Assembly (NCBI RefSeq): GCF_053078305.1
Contig: NZ_CP166879.1
Length of the DNA stretch: 64,000 nt
Strand: one strand, 5' to 3'
Shown: positions 17,224-37,604 of the stretch, piece after piece
Layout: each line of letters opens with the position of its first letter
How positions within the stretch are numbered: the stretch's first letter is position 1
Notes under the pieces: model-generated
Seen by the model: only the letters and a program-made list of their open reading frames with translations
The model's database searches: none
What the model was told of the DNA's origin: nothing
Translations under genes and position numbers: made by a program

Positions 17224-17376
17224 ATGCTGACAAAATATGCCCTTGTGGCAATCATCGTACTGTGTTGTACAGTACTGGGATTCACGCTGATGGTAGGCGA
17301 CTCGTTGTGTGAGTTGAGTATCAGAGAACGTGGTATGGAGTTTAAGGCTGTTCTCGCTTACGAATCGAAGAAGTAG
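17224..17376 (+). CDS. Hok/Gef-family type I toxin (50 aa), intact
   Basis: Translation [50 protein letters not shown]: hydrophobic N-terminal helix, conserved SLCE and AYES motifs of the Hok family; GGAGG 9 nt upstream of ATG. Below the track's 60-aa cutoff. Confidence 0.85.
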
Positions 17377-17568: not shown

Positions 17569-20268
17569 ATGCGTAAATATCCTTTAAGTTTACTGAAGGA
17601 TAAAAATATTGTGACTTTCTTTGATTTCTGGGGAAAAACCCGACGCGACGAGAAAGAAGGGGGTGACGACTATCACCTTCTTTGCTGGCATTCGCTGGAT
17701 GTGGCCGCGATGGGCTATTTAATGGTTAAAAGAAATTGCTTCGGGCTGGCTGATTATTTTCGTCAATTAGGGATTTCTGACAAGGAACAGGCGGCTCAAT
17801 TTTTCGCCTGGTTGTTGTGCTGGCACGATATTGGAAAATTTGCCCGCTCATTTCAGCAACTTTACCTGCACCCACAACTCAAGGTTCTGGAAGGCGCAAG
17901 AAAGAATTACGAAAAGATCTCTCATTCAACGCTGGGCTACTGGTTGTGGCATCATTATTTAAGTGAATGCGAAGAATTGCTTCCTGCCTCTTCACTCTCT
18001 ACTCGCAAACTTAAACGTGTAATAGCGATGTGGATGCCCATGACTACCGGGCATCATGGTCGGCCCCCTGACCGTATTGATGAACTGGATAATTTTCTGC
18101 CTGAAGACAAAGCTGCCGCACGAGATTTTCTCCTTGAAATCAAGTCACTGTTTCCGCTCATAGAGATTCCCACATTCTGGGATGATGACGAGGGCGTTGA
18201 ACTTTTAAAACAACTTTCCTGGTATATCTCTGCAACAGTCGTACTCGCAGACTGGACGGGTTCGTCAACGCGATTTTTTCCACGCGTCGCACAGACAATG
18301 AATATTAAAGATTACTGGCAGAAAACTTTAGTTCAGGCTCAAAACGCCTTAACCGTCTTTCCTCCAAAAGCAGAAACCGCACCTTTCACCGGAATTAATA
18401 CGCTGTTTCCTTTTATTGAGCACCCGACACCATTACAGCAAAAGGTACTGGATCTGGATATCAGCCAGCCAGGGCCACAGTTATTTATTCTGGAAGATGT
18501 GACTGGCGCAGGTAAAACAGAAGCGGCGCTTATCCTGGCGCACAGGTTGATGGCTGAGAATAAAGCTCAGGGTTTGTTTTTTGGCCTGCCAACAATGGCA
18601 ACGGCCAATGCCATGTACGATCGGCTGGTCAAAACCTGGCTTGCTTTCTTTTCGCCAGAATCCCGCCCCAGCCTGGTGCTGGCACACAGCGCCCGTACAT
18701 TAATGGAACGCTTTAATGAATCACTCTGGTCCGGTGATTTAGTCGGGTCAGAAGAACCGGATGAACAAGCGTTCAGTCAAGGATGTGCAGCCTGGTTTGC
18801 CGACAGTAACAAGAAGGCTTTACTGGCTGAAATTGGCGTCGGCACGCTGGATCAGGCGATGATGGCAGTGATGCCGTTTAAACATAATAATCTGCGGCTT
18901 CTGGGGTTGAGTAACAAAATCCTGCTGGCTGATGAGATCCACGCCTGTGACGCTTACATGTCGTACATTCTTGAAGGGTTGATTGAGCGACAGGTGCGTG
19001 GCGGAAACAGCGTCATTTTGCTTTCTGCTACGTTATCTCAACAGCAGCGCGACAAACTTGTCGCCGCCTTTGCGCGTGGCACAGAGGGCCAGCAAGAAGC
19101 TCCGTTCCTGGAAAAGGATGATTACCCCTGGCTGACGCATGTCACGAAATCCGATGTGCATTCGCACCGGGTAGCGACGCGCAAAGACGTTGAGCGTAGC
19201 GTGAGCGTGGGTTGGCTTCATAGCGAACAAGAATGTATTGCGCGTATCGAATCAGCGGTAAGTCAGGGGAAATGCATCGCCTGGATCCGGAATTCTGTCG
19301 ATGACGCTATTAAGGTTTATCGTCAGTTACTTGCCCGCGGCGTCATTCCTGCTTCCAGCCTTTCACTTTTTCATAGCCGCTTTGCTTTTAGCGATCGCCA
19401 GCGAATTGAAACGGAAACGCTGGCACGCTTTGGTAAAAATTGTAGTTTAAAAAGATCATCTCAAGTCATTGTTTGTACACAAGTAATTGAGCAAAGTGTG
19501 GATATTGACCTGGACGAAATGATCTCCGACCTGGCCCCCATTGATTTGCTGATCCAGCGAGCGGGGCGATTACAACGGCATATTCGTGATATTAATGGTC
19601 AGTTAAAACGTGATGGAAAAGACGAGCGTTCCCCTCCTGAATTGCTGATTCTGGCCCCCGTCTGGGACGACTCTCCGGGTGACGAATGGTTTGGTAGTGC
19701 GATGCGTAACAGCGCATATGTCTACCCCGATCATGGGCGAATCTGGCTGACGCAGCGAGTATTGCGTGAGCAAGGCGCTATTCAGATGCCACACGCAGCC
19801 CGGCTTCTTATTGAATCCGTCTACGGTGAGGACGTGGTAATGCCGGAAGGATTTGCCCGCAGCGAGCAGGAGCAAGTGGGCAAATATTACTGCGATCGCG
19901 CAATGGCTAAAAAGTTTATGCTGAACTTCAGGCCCGGCTATGCCGCCAATATCAACGATTACCTCCCGGAAAAGCTGTCGACACGTCTGGCTGAAGAGTC
20001 TGTTTCCCTGTGGCTGGCTACCTGTATTGACGGTGTGGTGAAGCCTTATGCCAGCGGTGCTCACGCATGGGAAATGAGCGTTGCCAGAGTGCGTCGAAGC
20101 TGGTGGAAAAAACATCGGGATGAATTTTCTTTACTGGAAGGGGAAGCGTTCAGGCAGTGGTGCATTGAACAACGGCAAGATCCGGAGATGGCAAACGTGA
20201 TTTTAGTCACCGATGACGAAAGCTGCGGGTATTCGGCTACGGAAGGATTGATTGGCAAGGTTGATTGA
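17569..20268 (+). CDS. cas3: Cas3 helicase-nuclease (type I-E)
   Basis: 899-aa ORF; N-terminal HD domain region, DExH helicase motifs (GAGKTEAAL, DEIH). Confidence 0.95.
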   Translation: MRKYPLSLLKDKNIVTFFDFWGKTRRDEKEGGDDYHLLCWHSLDVAAMGYLMVKRNCFGLADYFRQLGISDKEQAAQFFAWLLCWHDIGKFARSFQQLYLHPQLKVLEGARKNYEKISHSTLGYWLWHHYLSECEELLPASSLSTRKLKRVIAMWMPMTTGHHGRPPDRIDELDNFLPEDKAAARDFLLEIKSLFPLIEIPTFWDDDEGVELLKQLSWYISATVVLADWTGSSTRFFPRVAQTMNIKDYWQKTLVQAQNALTVFPPKAETAPFTGINTLFPFIEHPTPLQQKVLDLDISQPGPQLFILEDVTGAGKTEAALILAHRLMAENKAQGLFFGLPTMATANAMYDRLVKTWLAFFSPESRPSLVLAHSARTLMERFNESLWSGDLVGSEEPDEQAFSQGCAAWFADSNKKALLAEIGVGTLDQAMMAVMPFKHNNLRLLGLSNKILLADEIHACDAYMSYILEGLIERQVRGGNSVILLSATLSQQQRDKLVAAFARGTEGQQEAPFLEKDDYPWLTHVTKSDVHSHRVATRKDVERSVSVGWLHSEQECIARIESAVSQGKCIAWIRNSVDDAIKVYRQLLARGVIPASSLSLFHSRFAFSDRQRIETETLARFGKNCSLKRSSQVIVCTQVIEQSVDIDLDEMISDLAPIDLLIQRAGRLQRHIRDINGQLKRDGKDERSPPELLILAPVWDDSPGDEWFGSAMRNSAYVYPDHGRIWLTQRVLREQGAIQMPHAARLLIESVYGEDVVMPEGFARSEQEQVGKYYCDRAMAKKFMLNFRPGYAANINDYLPEKLSTRLAEESVSLWLATCIDGVVKPYASGAHAWEMSVARVRRSWWKKHRDEFSLLEGEAFRQWCIEQRQDPEMANVILVTDDESCGYSATEGLIGKVD

Positions 20269-20297
20269 GATGCCCTGGCGTCGGATGACGCCAGGGC

Positions 20298-20321
20298 TTA
20301 TCCCCGCTGACGCGGGGAACA
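20298..20321 (-). repeat. Solitary CRISPR repeat-like sequence, inverted relative to the arrays
   Basis: TTATCCCCGCTGACGCGGGGAACA matches the reverse complement of the array repeat (TTATCCCCGCTGGCGCGGGGAACA) at 23 of 24 positions; preceded by an 11-bp-stem hairpin at 20272-20297. Confidence 0.7.
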
Positions 20322-20712
20322 GGAACCAATTTTTGTATCTCACTAACTTGGTTAATCCCTAGAATCAGGGAATGGATTTATTTTATCAATGCTATTGTGA
20401 TTATGATAGATGGGTAATTGCTATGAGTTAATGAGAAACAAAAATTTTAAATAATGTCCGGATCCGGAGTTGAGTCACACCGTTACAAGGCGTATTTTCG
20501 TGACCGGTGAAAAGCTGCGGTGAAGAGGACTACGATGTTGTCGATTTTTTTGCTTCAACTTGTGCTAAGTCTGCTTTCAAAACGACAAACTAAGTTCGAT
20601 TTTCGTATCACATTCAACGTCTTTTCTTTTATCCGACTCAGATTAAGTCTCCAACTAAATCTGAAAATATGGTGATGGACAACCGACCAGGGATGGTCTT
20701 TTCTACGAGAGG

Positions 20713-22281
20713 ATGCGTATGAACTCGTTTTCACTTCTGACAACCCCGTGGTTGCCCGTTCGTTTTAAAGACGGAACGACAGGCAAACTGGCGCCAGTCG
20801 ATCTGGCTGATGAAAATGTTGTCGATATCGCTGCGCCACGAGCAGATCTCCAGGGAGCAGCATGGCAGTTTTTACTGGGGCTACTACAAACCAGTTTCGC
20901 GCCCAAAAATCATGGTCGTTGGGATGATATCTGGCAAGACGGACTGGAAGCCGAAAAGCTACGGGAAGCATTGCTGTCTTTAGAACATGCTTTCCAGTTT
21001 GGGCCAGATTCCCCTTCATTTATGCAGGATTTCGAGGCGCTCACGGGAGATAAAGTTCAGGTTGCTTCATTACTGCCTGAGATTCCCGGCGCTCAAACAA
21101 CGAAGTTTAATAAAGACCACTTTATTAAGCGTGGCGTGACTGAACACGTATGCCCTCATTGTTCCGCGTTAGCTCTGTTCTCCCTACAGTTAAATGCACC
21201 GTCAGGCGGCAAAGGCTACCGAACCGGTTTACGCGGCGGTGGGCCGATGACGACTCTGATTGAATTGCAGGAGTATCAGGGCAATCAACAAGCCCCCTTG
21301 TGGCGCAAACTGTGGCTCAACGTGATGCCGCAGGATGAAGCCGACTTACCGCTACCCAAAAAATTTGACGATCTGGTTTTCCCCTGGCTTGGCCCGACGC
21401 GTACCAGCGAACTGGCCGGTGCGGTGGTAACCGATGATCAGGTCAATAAACTCCAGGCGTACTGGGGAATGCCGCGGCGTATTCGTATTGATTTTAATAC
21501 CACGACAGTCGGCAACTGCGATATTTGCGGTGAGCAGGACGACGCGCTTCTGAGCCTGATGACGACCAAAAATTACGGTGCGAATTATGCCATGTGGCAG
21601 CATCCATTAACGCCTTACCGTGTACCACTTAAAGAGGGTGGCGAGTTTTACTCAGTTAAACCACAACCAGGCGGTTTAATTTGGCGCGACTGGTTAGGCC
21701 TTATCGAAACGGGTAAGTCAGAAAACAATACGGAACTTCCCGCTCTGGTGGTGAAACTCTTTAATGCCAGCAGTCTCAAGCAGGCAAAAGTAGGCCTATG
21801 GGGATTTGGCTATGATTTCGACAACATGAAAGCCCGCTGTTGGTACGAACACCGTTTCCCGCTGCTGCTCAATAAAAAAGAAGGCCAGATACCGAAACTG
21901 CGGCTGGCTGCGCAAACGGCTTCACGCATTCTAAGTCTGTTACGGAGTGCATTGAAAGAAGCATGGTTCTCCGATCCAAAAGGTGCACGGGGTGATTTCA
22001 GTTTTGTGGATATCGACTTCTGGAACAAAACTCAGCATCGCTTCCTGAGGTTAGTGCGCCAAATTGAAGAAGGTCAGGATGCGGATGAATTACTCAGCAA
22101 ATGGAATAAGGAGATTTGGTTATTCTCGCGTCAGGATTTTGACGAGCGTGTATTCACCAATCCTTATGAGCCCGTTGATTTAAAACGCGTCATGACCGCG
22201 CGCAAAAAATATTTTACAACATCGGCGGAGAAGCAAAATGCTAAAGCCGCCAGGGAGAAAAAGCAGGAGGCTGCTGAATGA
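20713..22281 (+). CDS. casA: Cascade large subunit Cse1 (CasA)
   Basis: 522-aa ORF; start could be the ATG at 20719; first gene after the AT-rich intergenic region. Confidence 0.9.
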   Translation: MRMNSFSLLTTPWLPVRFKDGTTGKLAPVDLADENVVDIAAPRADLQGAAWQFLLGLLQTSFAPKNHGRWDDIWQDGLEAEKLREALLSLEHAFQFGPDSPSFMQDFEALTGDKVQVASLLPEIPGAQTTKFNKDHFIKRGVTEHVCPHCSALALFSLQLNAPSGGKGYRTGLRGGGPMTTLIELQEYQGNQQAPLWRKLWLNVMPQDEADLPLPKKFDDLVFPWLGPTRTSELAGAVVTDDQVNKLQAYWGMPRRIRIDFNTTTVGNCDICGEQDDALLSLMTTKNYGANYAMWQHPLTPYRVPLKEGGEFYSVKPQPGGLIWRDWLGLIETGKSENNTELPALVVKLFNASSLKQAKVGLWGFGYDFDNMKARCWYEHRFPLLLNKKEGQIPKLRLAAQTASRILSLLRSALKEAWFSDPKGARGDFSFVDIDFWNKTQHRFLRLVRQIEEGQDADELLSKWNKEIWLFSRQDFDERVFTNPYEPVDLKRVMTARKKYFTTSAEKQNAKAAREKKQEAAE

Positions 22282-22814
22282 GTATTGTAAAAGAGGAGCA
22301 CAAAGCCACGCTGCGTAAATGGCACGAAGAGTTGCAGGCTAAACGCGGCAATCGTGCCAGTCTGCGGCGTAGCACAACGGTTAATGATGTTTGCTTGTCA
22401 GAAGGGTTTCGTTCTCTGCTGATGCAGACCCACACTTTGTGGAAAATTGAAGCACAAGAGTGGCGTTTTACCGCACTGGCGCTGGTCGCCGCAGTTAGCG
22501 CCAATGTAAAAGCCATTGATGAACGGCAGCCTTTTGCCGCGCAGCTGGCGGCGGTAATGTCGGAGGGGCGTTTTACTCGCCTGTCGGCAGTAAAAACGCC
22601 GGATGATTTACTGCGTCAGTTACGTCGCGCGGTCAAATTATTAAACGGTTCCGTCAATCTTATCTCTTTGGCAGAAGATATTTTCCGCTGGTGCCAGGAG
22701 AGCGACGACCTGCTCAATCATCACCGCCGCCAGCAGCGGCCAACCGAATTTATCCGTATCCGCTGGGCACTGGAATATTACCAGGCTGGCGACGCCGATA
22801 ACGAACAAAATTAA
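22278..22814 (+). CDS. casB: Cascade small subunit Cse2 (CasB)
   Basis: 178-aa ORF overlapping the casA stop. Confidence 0.9.
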   Translation: MSIVKEEHKATLRKWHEELQAKRGNRASLRRSTTVNDVCLSEGFRSLLMQTHTLWKIEAQEWRFTALALVAAVSANVKAIDERQPFAAQLAAVMSEGRFTRLSAVKTPDDLLRQLRRAVKLLNGSVNLISLAEDIFRWCQESDDLLNHHRRQQRPTEFIRIRWALEYYQAGDADNEQN

Positions 22815-22828
22815 TAAAGGACTATCTC

Positions 22829-23884
22829 ATGACAACATTTATTCAGCTTCATTTGTTAACCGCTTACCCTGCTGCCAACCTTAACCGTGATGATACTGGT
22901 GCGCCAAAAACTGTGGTACTGGGTGGTGCAACGCGTCTGCGCGTTTCCTCACAAAGTCTGAAACGTGCGTGGCGCACTTCTGCACTTTTTGAACAGGCAC
23001 TGGCGGGCCATATTGGTATTCGCAGTGGGCGAATTGCGCGTGAGGCGGCAACTATCCTGATTGAGAAAGGAATCGAAGAGAAAAAAGCCATCGAATGGGC
23101 GGCAAAAATTGCGGATTATCTTGGGAAAGCTAAAAACGACAAAAAACCAAAAGATCCGCTCACTAACGCCGAAACTGAACAATTAGTTCATATCAGCCCG
23201 GCAGAATTTGACGCCGTAAAAGCGCTGGCCCATCAACTGGCAGAAGAAAAGCGCGCGCCAAAAGAGGAAGATCTCGCGTTGTTACGTAAAGACCGTATAG
23301 CGGTAGATATCGCTATGTTTGGTCGTATGCTGGCGAATAAACCTGAGTTTAATGTTGAAGCCGCCTGCCAGGTCGCGCATGCGTTTGGTGTCAGTGAAAC
23401 GATTGTCGAAGATGATTTTTTCACCGCCGTTGATGATTTGCGCCAGGCCTCTGAAGATGCCGGTGCCGGGCATCTCGGAGAAACCGGATTCGGTTCAGCA
23501 CTTTTCTACACCTATATCTGCATTGATAAAGATCTGCTGGTAGAAAACCTCGGCGGTGACGAAGCGTTAGCTAATCAGACCATACGCGCTTTTACGGAAG
23601 CCGCGCTTAAAGTTTCCCCAACCGGTAAACAAAATAGCTTTGCCAGCCGTGCCTACGCCTCCTGGGCGCTGGCGGAAAAAGGCACTGATCAACCGCGTTC
23701 TCTGGCGGCGGCTTTCTATGAACCCATTAATGGTACCCGTCAGTTAGATGTGGCGGTGCAGCGTATTACAACGCTTCGCGAAAACATGAATACGGTCTAC
23801 GAACAGAAGACTGAATGCGCAAGTTTTGACGTGATGAACAAACAGGGAAGCATGAAGGACGTACTGGACTTTATCTGCGCGTAA
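22829..23884 (+). CDS. casC: Cascade backbone Cas7e (CasC)
   Basis: 351-aa ORF; N-terminal MTTFIQLHLLTAYPAANLNRDDTGAPK. Confidence 0.9.
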   Translation: MTTFIQLHLLTAYPAANLNRDDTGAPKTVVLGGATRLRVSSQSLKRAWRTSALFEQALAGHIGIRSGRIAREAATILIEKGIEEKKAIEWAAKIADYLGKAKNDKKPKDPLTNAETEQLVHISPAEFDAVKALAHQLAEEKRAPKEEDLALLRKDRIAVDIAMFGRMLANKPEFNVEAACQVAHAFGVSETIVEDDFFTAVDDLRQASEDAGAGHLGETGFGSALFYTYICIDKDLLVENLGGDEALANQTIRAFTEAALKVSPTGKQNSFASRAYASWALAEKGTDQPRSLAAAFYEPINGTRQLDVAVQRITTLRENMNTVYEQKTECASFDVMNKQGSMKDVLDFICA

Positions 23885-23894
23885 GGGGCGGCTT

Positions 23895-24641
23895 ATGAGC
23901 CAATATCTGATTTTTCAGCTTCATGGGCCAATGGCATCCTGGGGCGTCGATGCCCCCGGCGAAGTGCGTCATACCCATGAACTGCCTTCGCGCTCAGCAT
24001 TGCTGGGTCTGCTGGCTGCCGGGGTAGGGATTCGGCGTGATGATACCGAACGCTTAAACGCGTTTAATCGCCACTATTCACTGGTGGTTTGCGCCAGCCG
24101 TAACCCGCGCTGGGCACGGGATTATCACACGATCCAGATGCCAAAAGAGGTGCGCAAAGCGCGTTATTTCAGCCGTCGCGAAGAGTTGAGCGACTCTGAT
24201 CTTCTGAGCGCGATTATCTCCCGGCGCGACTACTACACCGACGCCTGGTGGATGGTGGCGGTGGCAACAACAGCCGATGCGCCTTACAGCCTCGAACAGT
24301 TGCAGGGCGGTTTACGCCATCCAGTTTTTCCTCTTTATCTGGGGCGAAAAAGTCATCCGCTGGCATTACCACTTGCGCCGTTACTGCTCGAAGGCAACGC
24401 GTCTGATGTTTTACGTAACGCATACCAACAGTATCAGGATCATTTCCACGACCTGAAAGTCTCACTCCCGAAACTTCAGGATGAATGCTGGTGGGAAGGG
24501 GAGCACGACGGCCTGGTCGTGAGCAAAATATTACGCCGCCGGGATGTTCCTTTAAATCGCCAGCAGTGGCTGTTTGGGGAACGCACCGTCAATCAGGGGC
24601 CGTGGCTCAGCAAGGAGGAACCATGTACCTCTCAAGAATAA
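23895..24641 (+). CDS. casD: Cascade Cas5e (CasD)
   Basis: 248-aa ORF at the expected position in the operon. Confidence 0.9.
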   Translation: MSQYLIFQLHGPMASWGVDAPGEVRHTHELPSRSALLGLLAAGVGIRRDDTERLNAFNRHYSLVVCASRNPRWARDYHTIQMPKEVRKARYFSRREELSDSDLLSAIISRRDYYTDAWWMVAVATTADAPYSLEQLQGGLRHPVFPLYLGRKSHPLALPLAPLLLEGNASDVLRNAYQQYQDHFHDLKVSLPKLQDECWWEGEHDGLVVSKILRRRDVPLNRQQWLFGERTVNQGPWLSKEEPCTSQE

Positions 24642-25269
24642 CCTTACATACCGCTCAGCTTTTGCCTGCGCAGTTGCTGCATCTGGTGGATCGCGGTGAA
24701 TATGTGATGCATCAGTGGCTGTGGGATCTCTTCCCTGGCGGCAAAGAAAGGCAATTTCTTTATCGTCGGGAGGAACTTCAGGGTGCGTTTCGCTTTTTTG
24801 TCCTCTCGCAGGAACGCCCGGCGGAAAGTGAAACTTTCACTATCGAATGCCGGTCATTTGCTCCGGAGCTGCGTACCGGACAATCCCTTTGTTTCAACCT
24901 GCGGGCGAATCCCACAATTTGTAAAGCGGGCAAGCGCCACGATCTGCTGATGGAGGCGAAACGGCAGGTGAGGGGACAGGCGGAAGGGCGTGATGTCTGG
25001 TTGCATCAACAACAGGCGGCGCTGGACTGGCTGGCAGCGCAGGGGGAGAGAAGCGGTTTTACACTGCTGGATACCTCGGTTGATGCCTACCGACAACAGC
25101 AACTGCGGCGGGAAAACTCCCGGCAACTGATCCAGTTCAGTAGCGTGGATTATACGGGGATGCTTACGGTCACCGATCCCGGGTTATTTCTGCAACGTCT
25201 CAGTCAGGGGTATGGCAAAAGCCGCGCGTTCGGCTGTGGTCTGATGCTGATCAAACCCGGAGCAGAGGT

Positions 25270-25273
<4 letters not shown>
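24623..25273 (+). CDS. casE: Cas6e (CasE) pre-crRNA endoribonuclease
   Basis: 216 aa from ATG 24623 (MYLSRITLHTAQLL...); the track ORF starts upstream at 24485; overlaps casD end. Confidence 0.9.
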
Positions 25274-26483
<1,210 letters not shown>

Positions 26484-26580
26484 GTTATGTGTTCTTTAAA
26501 AATAAGGAAATGTTTGAATTTAGTTGGTAGATTGTTGATGTGGAATAAATTTGTTTAAAAACAGATATGTATGCTTAGTG
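26484..26580 (+). promoter_or_regulatory. CRISPR leader (AT-rich) between cas2 and the first repeat
   Basis: 97-bp AT-rich stretch ending ...AACAGATATGTATGCTTAGT directly before the first repeat. Confidence 0.8.
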
Positions 26581-27579
26581 TGTTCCCCGCGCCAGCGGGG
26601 ATAAACCGGGGGGGCAATAATATGTGCGGCGGATCACCAGGTGTTCCCCGCGCCAGCGGGGATAAACCGTCGGAAAAATGGCTGGCCTCAACGGTGAAAA
26701 CGTGTTCCCCGCGCCAGCGGGGATAAACCGCCAGGGTGAAACTTTTCGCTGACGTAAATAAAGTGTTCCCCGCGCCAGCGGGGATAAACCGACAATCACA
26801 TATACGACGCGAGACGGAGATCGGTGTTCCCCGCGCCAGCGGGGATAAACCGTGATGGGCGAATACAAGCGCTGGCGCAACGAGGTGTTCCCCGCGCCAG
26901 CGGGGATAAACCCGGCATTCTTAACCGGCGCAACAAGGGGGGCGCGTGTTCCCCGCGCCAGCGGGGATAAACCGGTTAACTCCAGGTGGCGCGGCAGTGT
27001 TCAGAAGTGTTCCCCGCGCCAGCGGGGATAAACCGTGCTCTCATTTGTGTCGGCATCACTCGCGTCGGTGTTCCCCGCGCCAGCGGGGATAAACCGTCTG
27101 CCGCGAGCTGGTCTACGCCTACGCCATGGTGTTCCCCGCGCCAGCGGGGATAAACCGACATATGCCACAACCAGGCGAAGAAAAGTGTTCCCCGCGCCAG
27201 CGGGGATAAACCGCCCGTCACCGACGCGCAGTGGCGCTACCGTGAGTGTTCCCCGCGCCAGCGGGGATAAACCGGTCGCTGGGTTATTTTGTGTTGTGGG
27301 GCGATCGTGTTCCCCGCGCCAGCGGGGATAAACCGCTCATATTCGGATTGATCGTGTGTTTCGGTTTGTGTTCCCCGCGCCAGCGGGGATAAACCTGCGT
27401 ATATCTGTTGATGCGCACGGCGTGGCGGGTGTTCCCCGCGCCAGCGGGGATAAACCGAATGATTTAATACCAGACGCAGAGTGCCACACGTGTTCCCCGC
27501 GCCAGCGGGGATAAACCGGGCGCACTGGATGCGATGATGGATATCACTTAGAATTCCCCGCCCCTGCGGTAGAACACCC
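26581..27579 (+). CRISPR. cas-proximal CRISPR array (type I-E): 16 intact repeats plus 1 degenerate terminal repeat, 16 spacers
   Basis: Repeat GTGTTCCCCGCGCCAGCGGGGATAAACCG starting at 26581, 26642, 26702, 26763, 26824, 26885, 26946, 27007, 27068, 27129, 27185, 27246, 27307, 27368, 27429, 27490; degenerate GAATTCCCCGCCCCTGCGGTAGAACACCC at 27551-27579. Confidence 0.97.
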
Positions 27580-36464: not shown

Positions 36465-37604
36465 ATGAGCGCGGGAAGCCCAAAATTCACCGTTCGCCGC
36501 ATTGCGGCTTTGTCACTGGTTTCGCTATGGCTGGCAGGCTGTTCTGACACTTCAAATCCACCGGCACCGGTCAGCTCCGTTAATGGCAATGCGCCTGCAA
36601 ATACCAATTCTGGTATGTTGATTACGCCGCCGCCGAAAATGGGGACGACGTCTACAGCGCAGCAACCGCAAATTCAGCCGGTACAGCAGCCACAAATTCA
36701 GGCCACTCAACAACCGCAAATCCAGCCAGTGCAGCCAGTAGCTCAGCAGCCGGTACAGATGGAAAACGGACGCATCGTCTATAACCGTCAGTATGGGAAC
36801 ATTCCGAAAGGCAGTTATAGCGGCAGTACCTATACCGTGAAAAAAGGCGACACGCTTTTCTATATCGCCTGGATTACTGGCAACGATTTCCGTGACCTTG
36901 CTCAGCGCAACAATATTCAGGCACCATACGCGCTGAACGTCGGTCAGACCTTACAGGTGGGGAATGCTTCCGGTACGCCAATCACTGGCGGAAATGCCAT
37001 TACCCAGGCCGACGCAGCAGAGCAAGGAGTTGTGATCAAGCCTGCACAAAATTCCACCGTTGCTGTTGCGTCGCAACCGACAATTACGTATTCTGATTCT
37101 TCGGGTGAACAGAGTGCTAACAAAATGTTGCCGAACAACAAGCCAACTGCGACCACGGTCACAGCGCCTGTAACGGTACCAACAGCAAGCACAACCGAGC
37201 CGACTGTCAGCAGTACATCAACCAGTACGCCTATCTCCACCTGGCGCTGGCCGACTGAGGGCAAAGTGATCGAAACCTTTGGCGCTTCTGAGGGGGGCAA
37301 CAAGGGGATTGATATCGCAGGCAGCAAAGGACAGGCAATTATCGCGACCGCAGATGGCCGCGTTGTTTATGCCGGTAACGCGCTGCGCGGCTACGGTAAT
37401 CTGATTATCATCAAACATAATGATGATTACCTGAGTGCCTACGCCCATAACGACACAATGCTGGTCCGGGAACAACAAGAAGTGAAGGCGGGGCAAAAAA
37501 TAGCAACCATGGGTAGCACCGGAACCAGTTCAACACGCTTGCATTTTGAAATTCGTTACAAGGGGAAATCCGTAAACCCGCTGCGTTATTTGCCGCAGCG
37601 ATAA
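36465..37604 (+). CDS. nlpD: Murein hydrolase activator lipoprotein NlpD (LysM + M23 peptidase domains)
   Basis: 379-aa ORF; lipobox LAGCS; Q/P-rich repeat linker; M23-like C-terminus. Confidence 0.95.

Follow-up and report, generated by a model that had tools for sequence, protein, structure and literature searches.

The Cas1-Cas2 integrase of CRISPR-Cas systems belonging to type I-E measures incoming DNA with a fixed ruler geometry, and the last base of each repeat derives from the PAM of the incoming spacer. The closest described relative of the locus examined here is the iap-proximal type I-E array of Escherichia coli (CRISPR I, or CRISPR2.1), which lies between cas2 and iap, has a 29-bp repeat with a 61-bp period and follows cas genes arranged in the order cas3 to cas2. 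A survey of uropathogenic E. coli found 762 unique spacers of 29-35 bp (PMC12736100), and during primed adaptation in E. coli 98.6% of prespacers were 33 bp, 0.3% were 32 bp and 1.1% were 34 bp, as counted by a pipeline that dropped inserts shorter than 30 nt (bioRxiv 10.1101/2020.02.10.942821). Shortened guides have been engineered in K-12, where processing by Cas6e proved independent of spacer length; a spacer short by 3 nt yielded a five-Cas7 Cascade with full interference, and a spacer short by 6 nt gave no protection against phage or transformation, yet plasmid loss remained clear and priming stayed robust (Kuznedelov et al. 2016, PMC5159557). In addition, CreR and CreA are natural type I guides, often with short spacers, that make use of Cascade, and autorepression of cas genes by CreR has been shown experimentally for the type I-E locus of Salmonella (bioRxiv 10.1101/2023.03.10.532045).

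The array described here shares the cas2-iap locus, the repeat length, the period and the gene order of the known E. coli array, and many E. coli strains have trailer-end spacers 13-16 in common with it. It is an ordinary, well-known and already annotated iap-proximal E. coli type I-E array. Unlike the known arrays, however, it contains one 27-bp spacer among its 16 (spacer 10), which is a rare length variant of a known object. We assign a rough probability of 0.55 to the explanation as a whole, namely that this is an iap-proximal type I-E array with a genuine, inherited 27-bp spacer of the origin and function proposed below, in an array that serves as phage memory.

Array anatomy, cas operon and phage targets

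We analysed a stretch of 64,000 nucleotides (hereafter, the window), in which the repeat GTGTTCCCCGCGCCAGCGGGGATAAACCG occurs in 16 perfect or near-perfect 29-bp copies, each with at most one mismatch, followed by a degenerate terminal copy (Table 1). With a 29-mer present 17 times at regular intervals and adjoining cas2, chance is of no concern. The repeats are tandem, partially palindromic and of the 28 + 1 bp form; they start 61 bp apart in 15 of the 16 units, the sole exception being the 56-bp step from 27129 to 27185, and the spacers between them are 32 bp long (33 bp with the PAM-derived base) in all cases but spacer 10. The position of the leader sets the orientation of the array, with the newest spacers at 26609 and the oldest at 27550, and a simple scan of the leader (26484-26579) found no consensus promoter. 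Growth has been polarised, in that spacers 13-16 are widely shared and the leader-end spacers vary between sister lineages (S1 in place of u7 and u12). Two of the 16 repeats depart from the consensus, both at the last base only, and the acquisition of spacers 6 and 14, which follow these repeats, probably involved PAMs that were slipped or other than AAG.

The initial annotation had described a cas-proximal array of 16 spacers that included a 56-bp unit with a 27-bp spacer at 27158-27184. Repeat mapping agrees on both counts, and when the window was searched with a gapped pattern that accepts up to 30 bp between repeat cores, 27158-27184 was the only spacer returned. Two of its details were displaced by a single base: the array starts at 26580 rather than 26581, and a supposed 31-bp spacer (26671-26701) in a 60-bp unit is an ordinary 32-bp spacer (26670-26701), the repeats on either side starting at 26641 and 26702, 61 bp apart.

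Table 1. Coordinates of the array, the cas genes and associated elements in the window
Feature	Position	Strand	Remarks
cas3	17569-20268	+	899 aa; TIGR01587 and TIGR01596 above cut-off; exact protein in close relatives
psi-R2	20294-20322	-	25/29 identical to the repeat, hairpin intact
psi-spacer	20323-20348	-	26 nt, AGTTAGTGAGATACAAAAATTGGTTC
psi-R1	about 20349-20375	-	5'-handle-like sequence ATTAACCA
Putative target of psi-spacer	20426-20451 (with ATG PAM, 20423-20451)	+	matches guide positions 1-21 except 6 and 12
cse1/casA	20713-22281	+	TIGR02547, 610 bits
cse2/casB	22278-22814	+	TIGR02548
cas7/casC	22829-23884	+	TIGR01869
cas5/casD	23895-24641	+	TIGR01868
cas6e/casE	24623-25273	+	TIGR01907
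cas1e	25270-26193	+	TIGR03638; intact, 307 aa, without the internal stop of the sister lineage
cas2e	26190-26483	+	TIGR01873
Leader	26484-26579	+	96 bp, AT-rich, from cas2 to the first repeat
CRISPR array	26580-27579	+	16 repeats, degenerate terminal repeat and 16 spacers; equivalent arrays labelled 'CRISPR' in RefSeq relatives
Repeat starts	26580, 26641, 26702, 26763, 26824, 26885, 26946, 27007, 27068
Repeat starts, continued	27129, 27185, 27246, 27307, 27368, 27429, 27490
Variant last repeat base	26913	+	C, not G; repeat preceding spacer 6
Spacer 7	26975-27006	+	match to lambdoid (pro)phage
Spacer 10	27158-27184	+	27 bp, ACATATGCCACAACCAGGCGAAGAAAA; flanked by perfect repeats at 27129-27157 and 27185-27213
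Spacer 13	27336-27367	+	near-match to phage major capsid gene
Variant last repeat base	27396	+	T, not G; repeat preceding spacer 14
Degenerate terminal (17th) repeat	27551-27579	+	GAATTCCCCGCCCCTGCGGTAGAACACCC; about 19/29 identity to the consensus repeat

Upstream of the array, the cas3-cse1-cse2-cas7-cas5-cas6e-cas1-cas2 operon is intact (17569-26483), and all eight Cas proteins exceed the curated NCBIfam cut-offs for type I-E, the type to which the array had initially been assigned. By its repeat and protein lengths, the operon appears to be the non-K-12, 'Salmonella-like' cas variant ('var. B-8552'), whose Cas7, Cas5 and Cas6 proteins are only about 30% identical to those of K-12 (PMC12736100). 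Downstream of the array lie iap and cysDN, a flank that essentially every one of 5,426 complete E. coli genomes matches at 95-99.5% identity. Spacers 1-3, 6 and 8-10 are confined to a small lineage and absent from those 5,426 genomes.

The window also contains a second array on the ygcE side (12-528), with eight spacers of 32 bp. Its repeat occurs as the variant GAGTTCCCCGCGCTAGCGGGGATAAACCG in six copies, and the other three have C for T at position 14. A degenerate two-repeat remnant is located 500 bp beyond this array, at 1031-1120.

Spacer targets had initially been listed as unknown. This gap is now closed in part, by matches of spacers 7 and 13 to lambdoid phage. Spacer 7 is identical to a site in Escherichia phage vB_EcoM-705R4 over 33/33 positions including the PAM-derived G, next to an ATG PAM; this protospacer is intergenic, adjoins a Gifsy-2-like gene and lies two genes from the Q antiterminator. 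It also matches ten IMG/VR contigs at 32/32, all with ATG, so that ATG is the PAM at all 11 phage or viral loci. Most of the 500 complete E. coli genomes matched, ST131 among them, carry further 100% matches to spacer 7 outside CRISPR arrays, and these chromosomal sites are probably prophages. If the source genome carried the protospacer, spacer 7 would be self-targeting; inside the 64-kb window, the best self-matches of the spacers are 13-17 nt. Spacer 13 aligns at 30/32 positions plus the PAM-derived G, again next to an ATG PAM, with a gene for 'major capsid protein E' that is found in vB_EcoM-705R4 and in three phages related to it.

The initial annotation had proposed to search the spacers against phage, plasmid and host genomes and to look for an AAG-type PAM beside the hits. 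This yielded the phage matches described above and no plasmid protospacers in PLSDB. The AWG motif (AAG or ATG) of type I-E systems, whose G becomes the last repeat base, was found in its ATG form for spacers 7 and 13, and a weak 29/32 match of spacer 5 to a Klebsiella phage is flanked by CTG. The spacer 5 protospacer recurs, in shifted form, as a spacer in the ygcE-side array of ETEC1721; likewise, spacer 4 is a spacer in other strains and, in M1 (the one fetched), resides in the queE/ygcE-side array. Spacers 1-3 had no match in IMG/VR, where spacer 7 served as the positive control with its ten contigs. Taken by these matches, the rest of the array appears to be ordinary phage memory.

Inheritance and rarity of the 27-bp spacer

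Relatives of the locus were identified by exact look-ups of the Cas3 and Cse1 proteins, exact Iap being too common to discriminate and truncated Cas1 leading to a single place only. GCA_000736735.1 (contig JPQG01000003.1), obtained with Cse1, is identical to positions 10719-32281 of the window over 21,563 of 21,563 nucleotides and carries the same array; it is therefore either the source genome itself or the same strain. Relative to two further assemblies (L035 and L036), the window shows four SNPs and no indels in the 17,011 bp that precede the array, and the 835 bp that follow it are identical throughout (835/835). The identical spacer 10 unit is present in the relatives L042, L046 and L047. 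L046 (GCA_030473905.1) and L047 (GCA_052552105.1) are separated from the window by 41-43 substitutions, with no indels, over the 9-kb cas operon, and their arrays depart from the one described here at the leader end, where they have u7 and u12, and in their internal content. In both, spacer 10 is present at the same 27 bp, with a perfect repeat on each side and spacers 11 and 12 after it. In L048 (GCA_016697025.1), spacer 9 stands directly before spacer 11, and this relative has thus lost the entire spacer 10 unit.

The presence of the same 27-bp spacer in diverged lineages with different arrays indicates that it is genuine and inherited, and the comparison shows that spacer 10 already measured 27 bp in the ancestor from which at least two lineages descend. 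Since the array grows at its leader end, spacer 10 is older than at least 11 later acquisitions, and its shortening is therefore a single old event. A sequencing or assembly artefact masking a true spacer of 32 bp is effectively excluded. The 3' end of spacer 10 is A-rich (GAAGAAAA), which is mildly error-prone on some platforms. However, where the initial annotation allowed that re-sequencing might reveal standard 32-bp spacing, the evidence points the opposite way, with the identical 27-bp unit recovered in assemblies of two other diverged lineages. Comparison with other assemblies moreover shows zero indels over 17.8 kb of flanking sequence, and the collapse of an array during assembly would drop multiples of 61 bp, not 5 bp.

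Spacer 10 is also rare in its length. We gathered 174 unique spacers from about 30 E. coli arrays; of these, 170 were 32 bp, two were 33 bp, one was 31 bp and one, spacer 10, was 27 bp. The description of this spacer as atypical for type I-E was well founded, as it is the sole 27-bp spacer in our collection and falls outside the 29-35 bp range of the published survey. Across 100,044 species-representative genomes, one per species, we found no spacer of 30 bp or less between copies of the array repeat, using a pattern validated on the window. Spacer 10 had no match in the 5,426 complete E. coli genomes (blastn, E up to 10), and array-spanning ORF queries for other assemblies with spacer 10 returned repeat-derived similarity only, at 73% identity or less.

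From the arrays of these lineages we reconstructed an ancestral order of about 29 spacers, with either u7 u12 or S1 at the leader end, followed by S2-S7 u1 S8 u13 S9 S10 S11 S12 u8-u11 u2-u6 S13-S16. The lineages differ from this order by separate in-register block losses, and the comparison provides a clean reconstruction of such losses in one E. coli lineage. Two further observations concern the sister lineage in which the 27-bp spacer is likewise present. In L047, spacer 14 occurs twice in tandem, a unit duplication, and L045-L048 share a nonsense mutation in cas1 (L264*), given which the sister-lineage arrays are probably frozen. The wider importance of the short spacer is limited and reaches little beyond bookkeeping: the case shows that an off-ruler spacer, though rare, does occur in a natural type I-E array and can outlast lineage splitting and many later acquisitions.

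Origin and predicted function of spacer 10

The initial annotation had put forward an internal deletion or aberrant integration. This was the correct pair of options, but neither is singled out, and the two are inseparable because no protospacer and no 32-bp allele was found. Searches for a spacer 10 protospacer came back empty in INPHARED phages and PLSDB plasmids, in IMG/VR (three patterns) and in GTDB representative genomes; the 5,426 complete E. coli genomes contained neither a protospacer nor a 32-bp allele, and that allele was absent from every related array examined. The one hit in JGI metagenomes (L007) lies on a contig of high GC content, matches spacer 10 at 22/27 positions and is flanked by CTC; it was rejected as chance, about two chance matches being expected for 20 specified bases. 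In the spacer searches against phages and plasmids, matches of 23-24 nt to Ralstonia, Pseudomonas, Deinococcus and Paracoccus (E values of 3-8) were also regarded as chance.

We favour, at roughly even odds, a 5-bp deletion that would have occurred after integration, within a spacer that was originally 32 bp long. The slight lean towards deletion reflects a Cas1-Cas2 ruler that is known to err by one base, not five. Somewhat short of even odds is a mis-sized acquisition, in which Cas1-Cas2 would have inserted a prespacer 5 bp too short (28 bp with the PAM-derived G), so that the spacer was never longer than it is today. The absence of a 32-bp allele from all relatives is consistent with such an event, as are the perfect flanking repeats and the canonical PAM-derived G at the end of the upstream repeat. 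Because this G is normal, the PAM-proximal end looks normally processed and the defect could be PAM-distal; a length of 28 bp would correspond to the 23-bp ruler duplex plus a single 5-nt overhang. Against mis-sized acquisition, length fidelity in vivo is very high, with known errors of plus or minus one base (bioRxiv 10.1101/2020.02.10.942821), although a 28-bp insert would have been invisible to that pipeline. Given the fixed geometry of Cas1-Cas2, moreover, a shift of one base is far easier to accommodate than a shortfall of 5 bp. It is unlikely that spacer 10 is instead a chimera, a 27-bp hybrid created by a microhomology-mediated deletion that fused the 5' portion of an ancestral spacer to the 3' portion of another located downstream, with the loss of the intervening repeat or repeats. 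Block losses of units are clearly frequent in the arrays of this lineage, yet every loss that we observed is in register with whole 61-bp units. Moreover, the longest substring that spacer 10 has in common with any of 174 other collected spacers is 7 nt, and the 5,426 E. coli genomes contain no match to it of about 19 nt or more.

If the results obtained in K-12 apply to spacer 10, Cas6e would still cut both flanking hairpins and release a 56-nt crRNA, where type I-E crRNAs are otherwise 61 nt, and Cascade assembled on this crRNA would hold five rather than six Cas7 subunits. Such a complex would bind its target more weakly, interfere partially and still prime adaptation. Spacer 10 should thus combine weakened interference with retained priming, a prediction for 5 nt drawn from K-12 tests of 3 and 6 nt. 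The engineered K-12 crRNAs were shortened at the leader-distal side (PMC5159557), and the 5 nt missing from spacer 10 fall between their two lengths. In contrast to those laboratory constructs with known targets, spacer 10 is natural and belongs to a diverged Cascade variant; the published work on Cascade with altered stoichiometry thus gains a test case from nature. When folded, the repeat-spacer 10-repeat segment forms inter-repeat pairing, as any two palindromic repeats would.

E. coli type I-E systems are commonly silenced. We consider it quite improbable that the short spacer has been kept because its crRNA builds a five-Cas7 Cascade that would act mainly in priming or as a binding-only guide. 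If true, the engineered shortened guides would have a natural equivalent in spacer 10, at a locus where a 26-nt CreR-like guide is already present. Still more improbable is a regulatory role, in which the short spacer would have been retained as a crRNA that binds cas3 or cse1 without cleavage, in the manner of CreR or CreA. The observation behind this idea is that 13-nt stretches of spacer 10 recur exactly at three places in the window, two in cas3 (17803-17815 and 17940-17952, minus strand) and one in cse1 (21661-21673, plus strand), with the common core CCACAACCAGGCG. At least three 13-mer matches arose in just 36 of 20,000 shuffles of spacer 10, and among 175 sequences collected as spacers it alone has three separate sites. 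The observation is, however, post hoc, and 8% of natural spacers show at least one 13-mer match in the window. The matches span spacer positions 5-22, off the PAM-proximal seed, and lie inside coding sequence; in full register, identity is only 16-18/27, and the cse1 site, the sole one whose flank was checked, is flanked by CAG rather than AAG or ATG. Spacer 10 resembles CreR and CreA in being a natural and short type I guide that would use Cascade (bioRxiv 10.1101/2023.03.10.532045). CreR, however, has degenerate repeats and pairs through a PAM-flanked seed with a cas promoter, whereas spacer 10 is flanked by perfect 29-mers rather than by degenerate elements of the psi-R1/psi-R2 kind and has no seed match. 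With neither of these two features found, we judged the matches in cas3 and cse1 to be chance; in addition, a separate CreR-like element is already present at the locus.

A CreR-like mini-CRISPR between cas3 and cse1

This element is a degenerate mini-CRISPR on the minus strand just past cas3 (20294-20375), composed of psi-R1, a psi-spacer and psi-R2 (Table 1). Type I-E crRNAs do not pair at positions 6 and 12, the two positions excepted in the match between the psi-spacer and its putative target. The version of the element in strain 135 has A15T in guide and target alike, together with a compensatory change in the psi-R2 stem. In strain N3 the guide is 32 nt long, the PAM is AAG and the target is matched over positions 1-17, again apart from 6 and 12. 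The guide thus co-varies with its target in all three of these diverged E. coli variants. The seed of the putative target is overlapped by a minus-strand site (20431-20403) that resembles a promoter at consensus level. Among the 5,426 complete E. coli genomes, only 16 have any similarity to the element.

On these sequence features, the element between cas3 and cse1 fits the CreR class of cas-autorepressing guides. If this assignment is true, RNA-guided autorepression of cas genes, which for type I-E has so far been tested only with the Salmonella element, would extend to E. coli. A Salmonella record labelled as a plasmid, retrieved for comparison, contained the queE-side array in place of the cas locus. 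The CreR-like mini-CRISPR is a more useful by-product of the analysis than the short spacer itself.

Other features were noted elsewhere in the window. A search of Rfam gave no family up to the gathering score. Mapping of the L035 gene calls placed a gene for a 50-aa toxin of the Hok/Gef family on the plus strand between cysH and cas3 (17224-17376), and Tandem Repeats Finder identified a 24-bp tandem repeat of 2.6 copies at 36663-36725.
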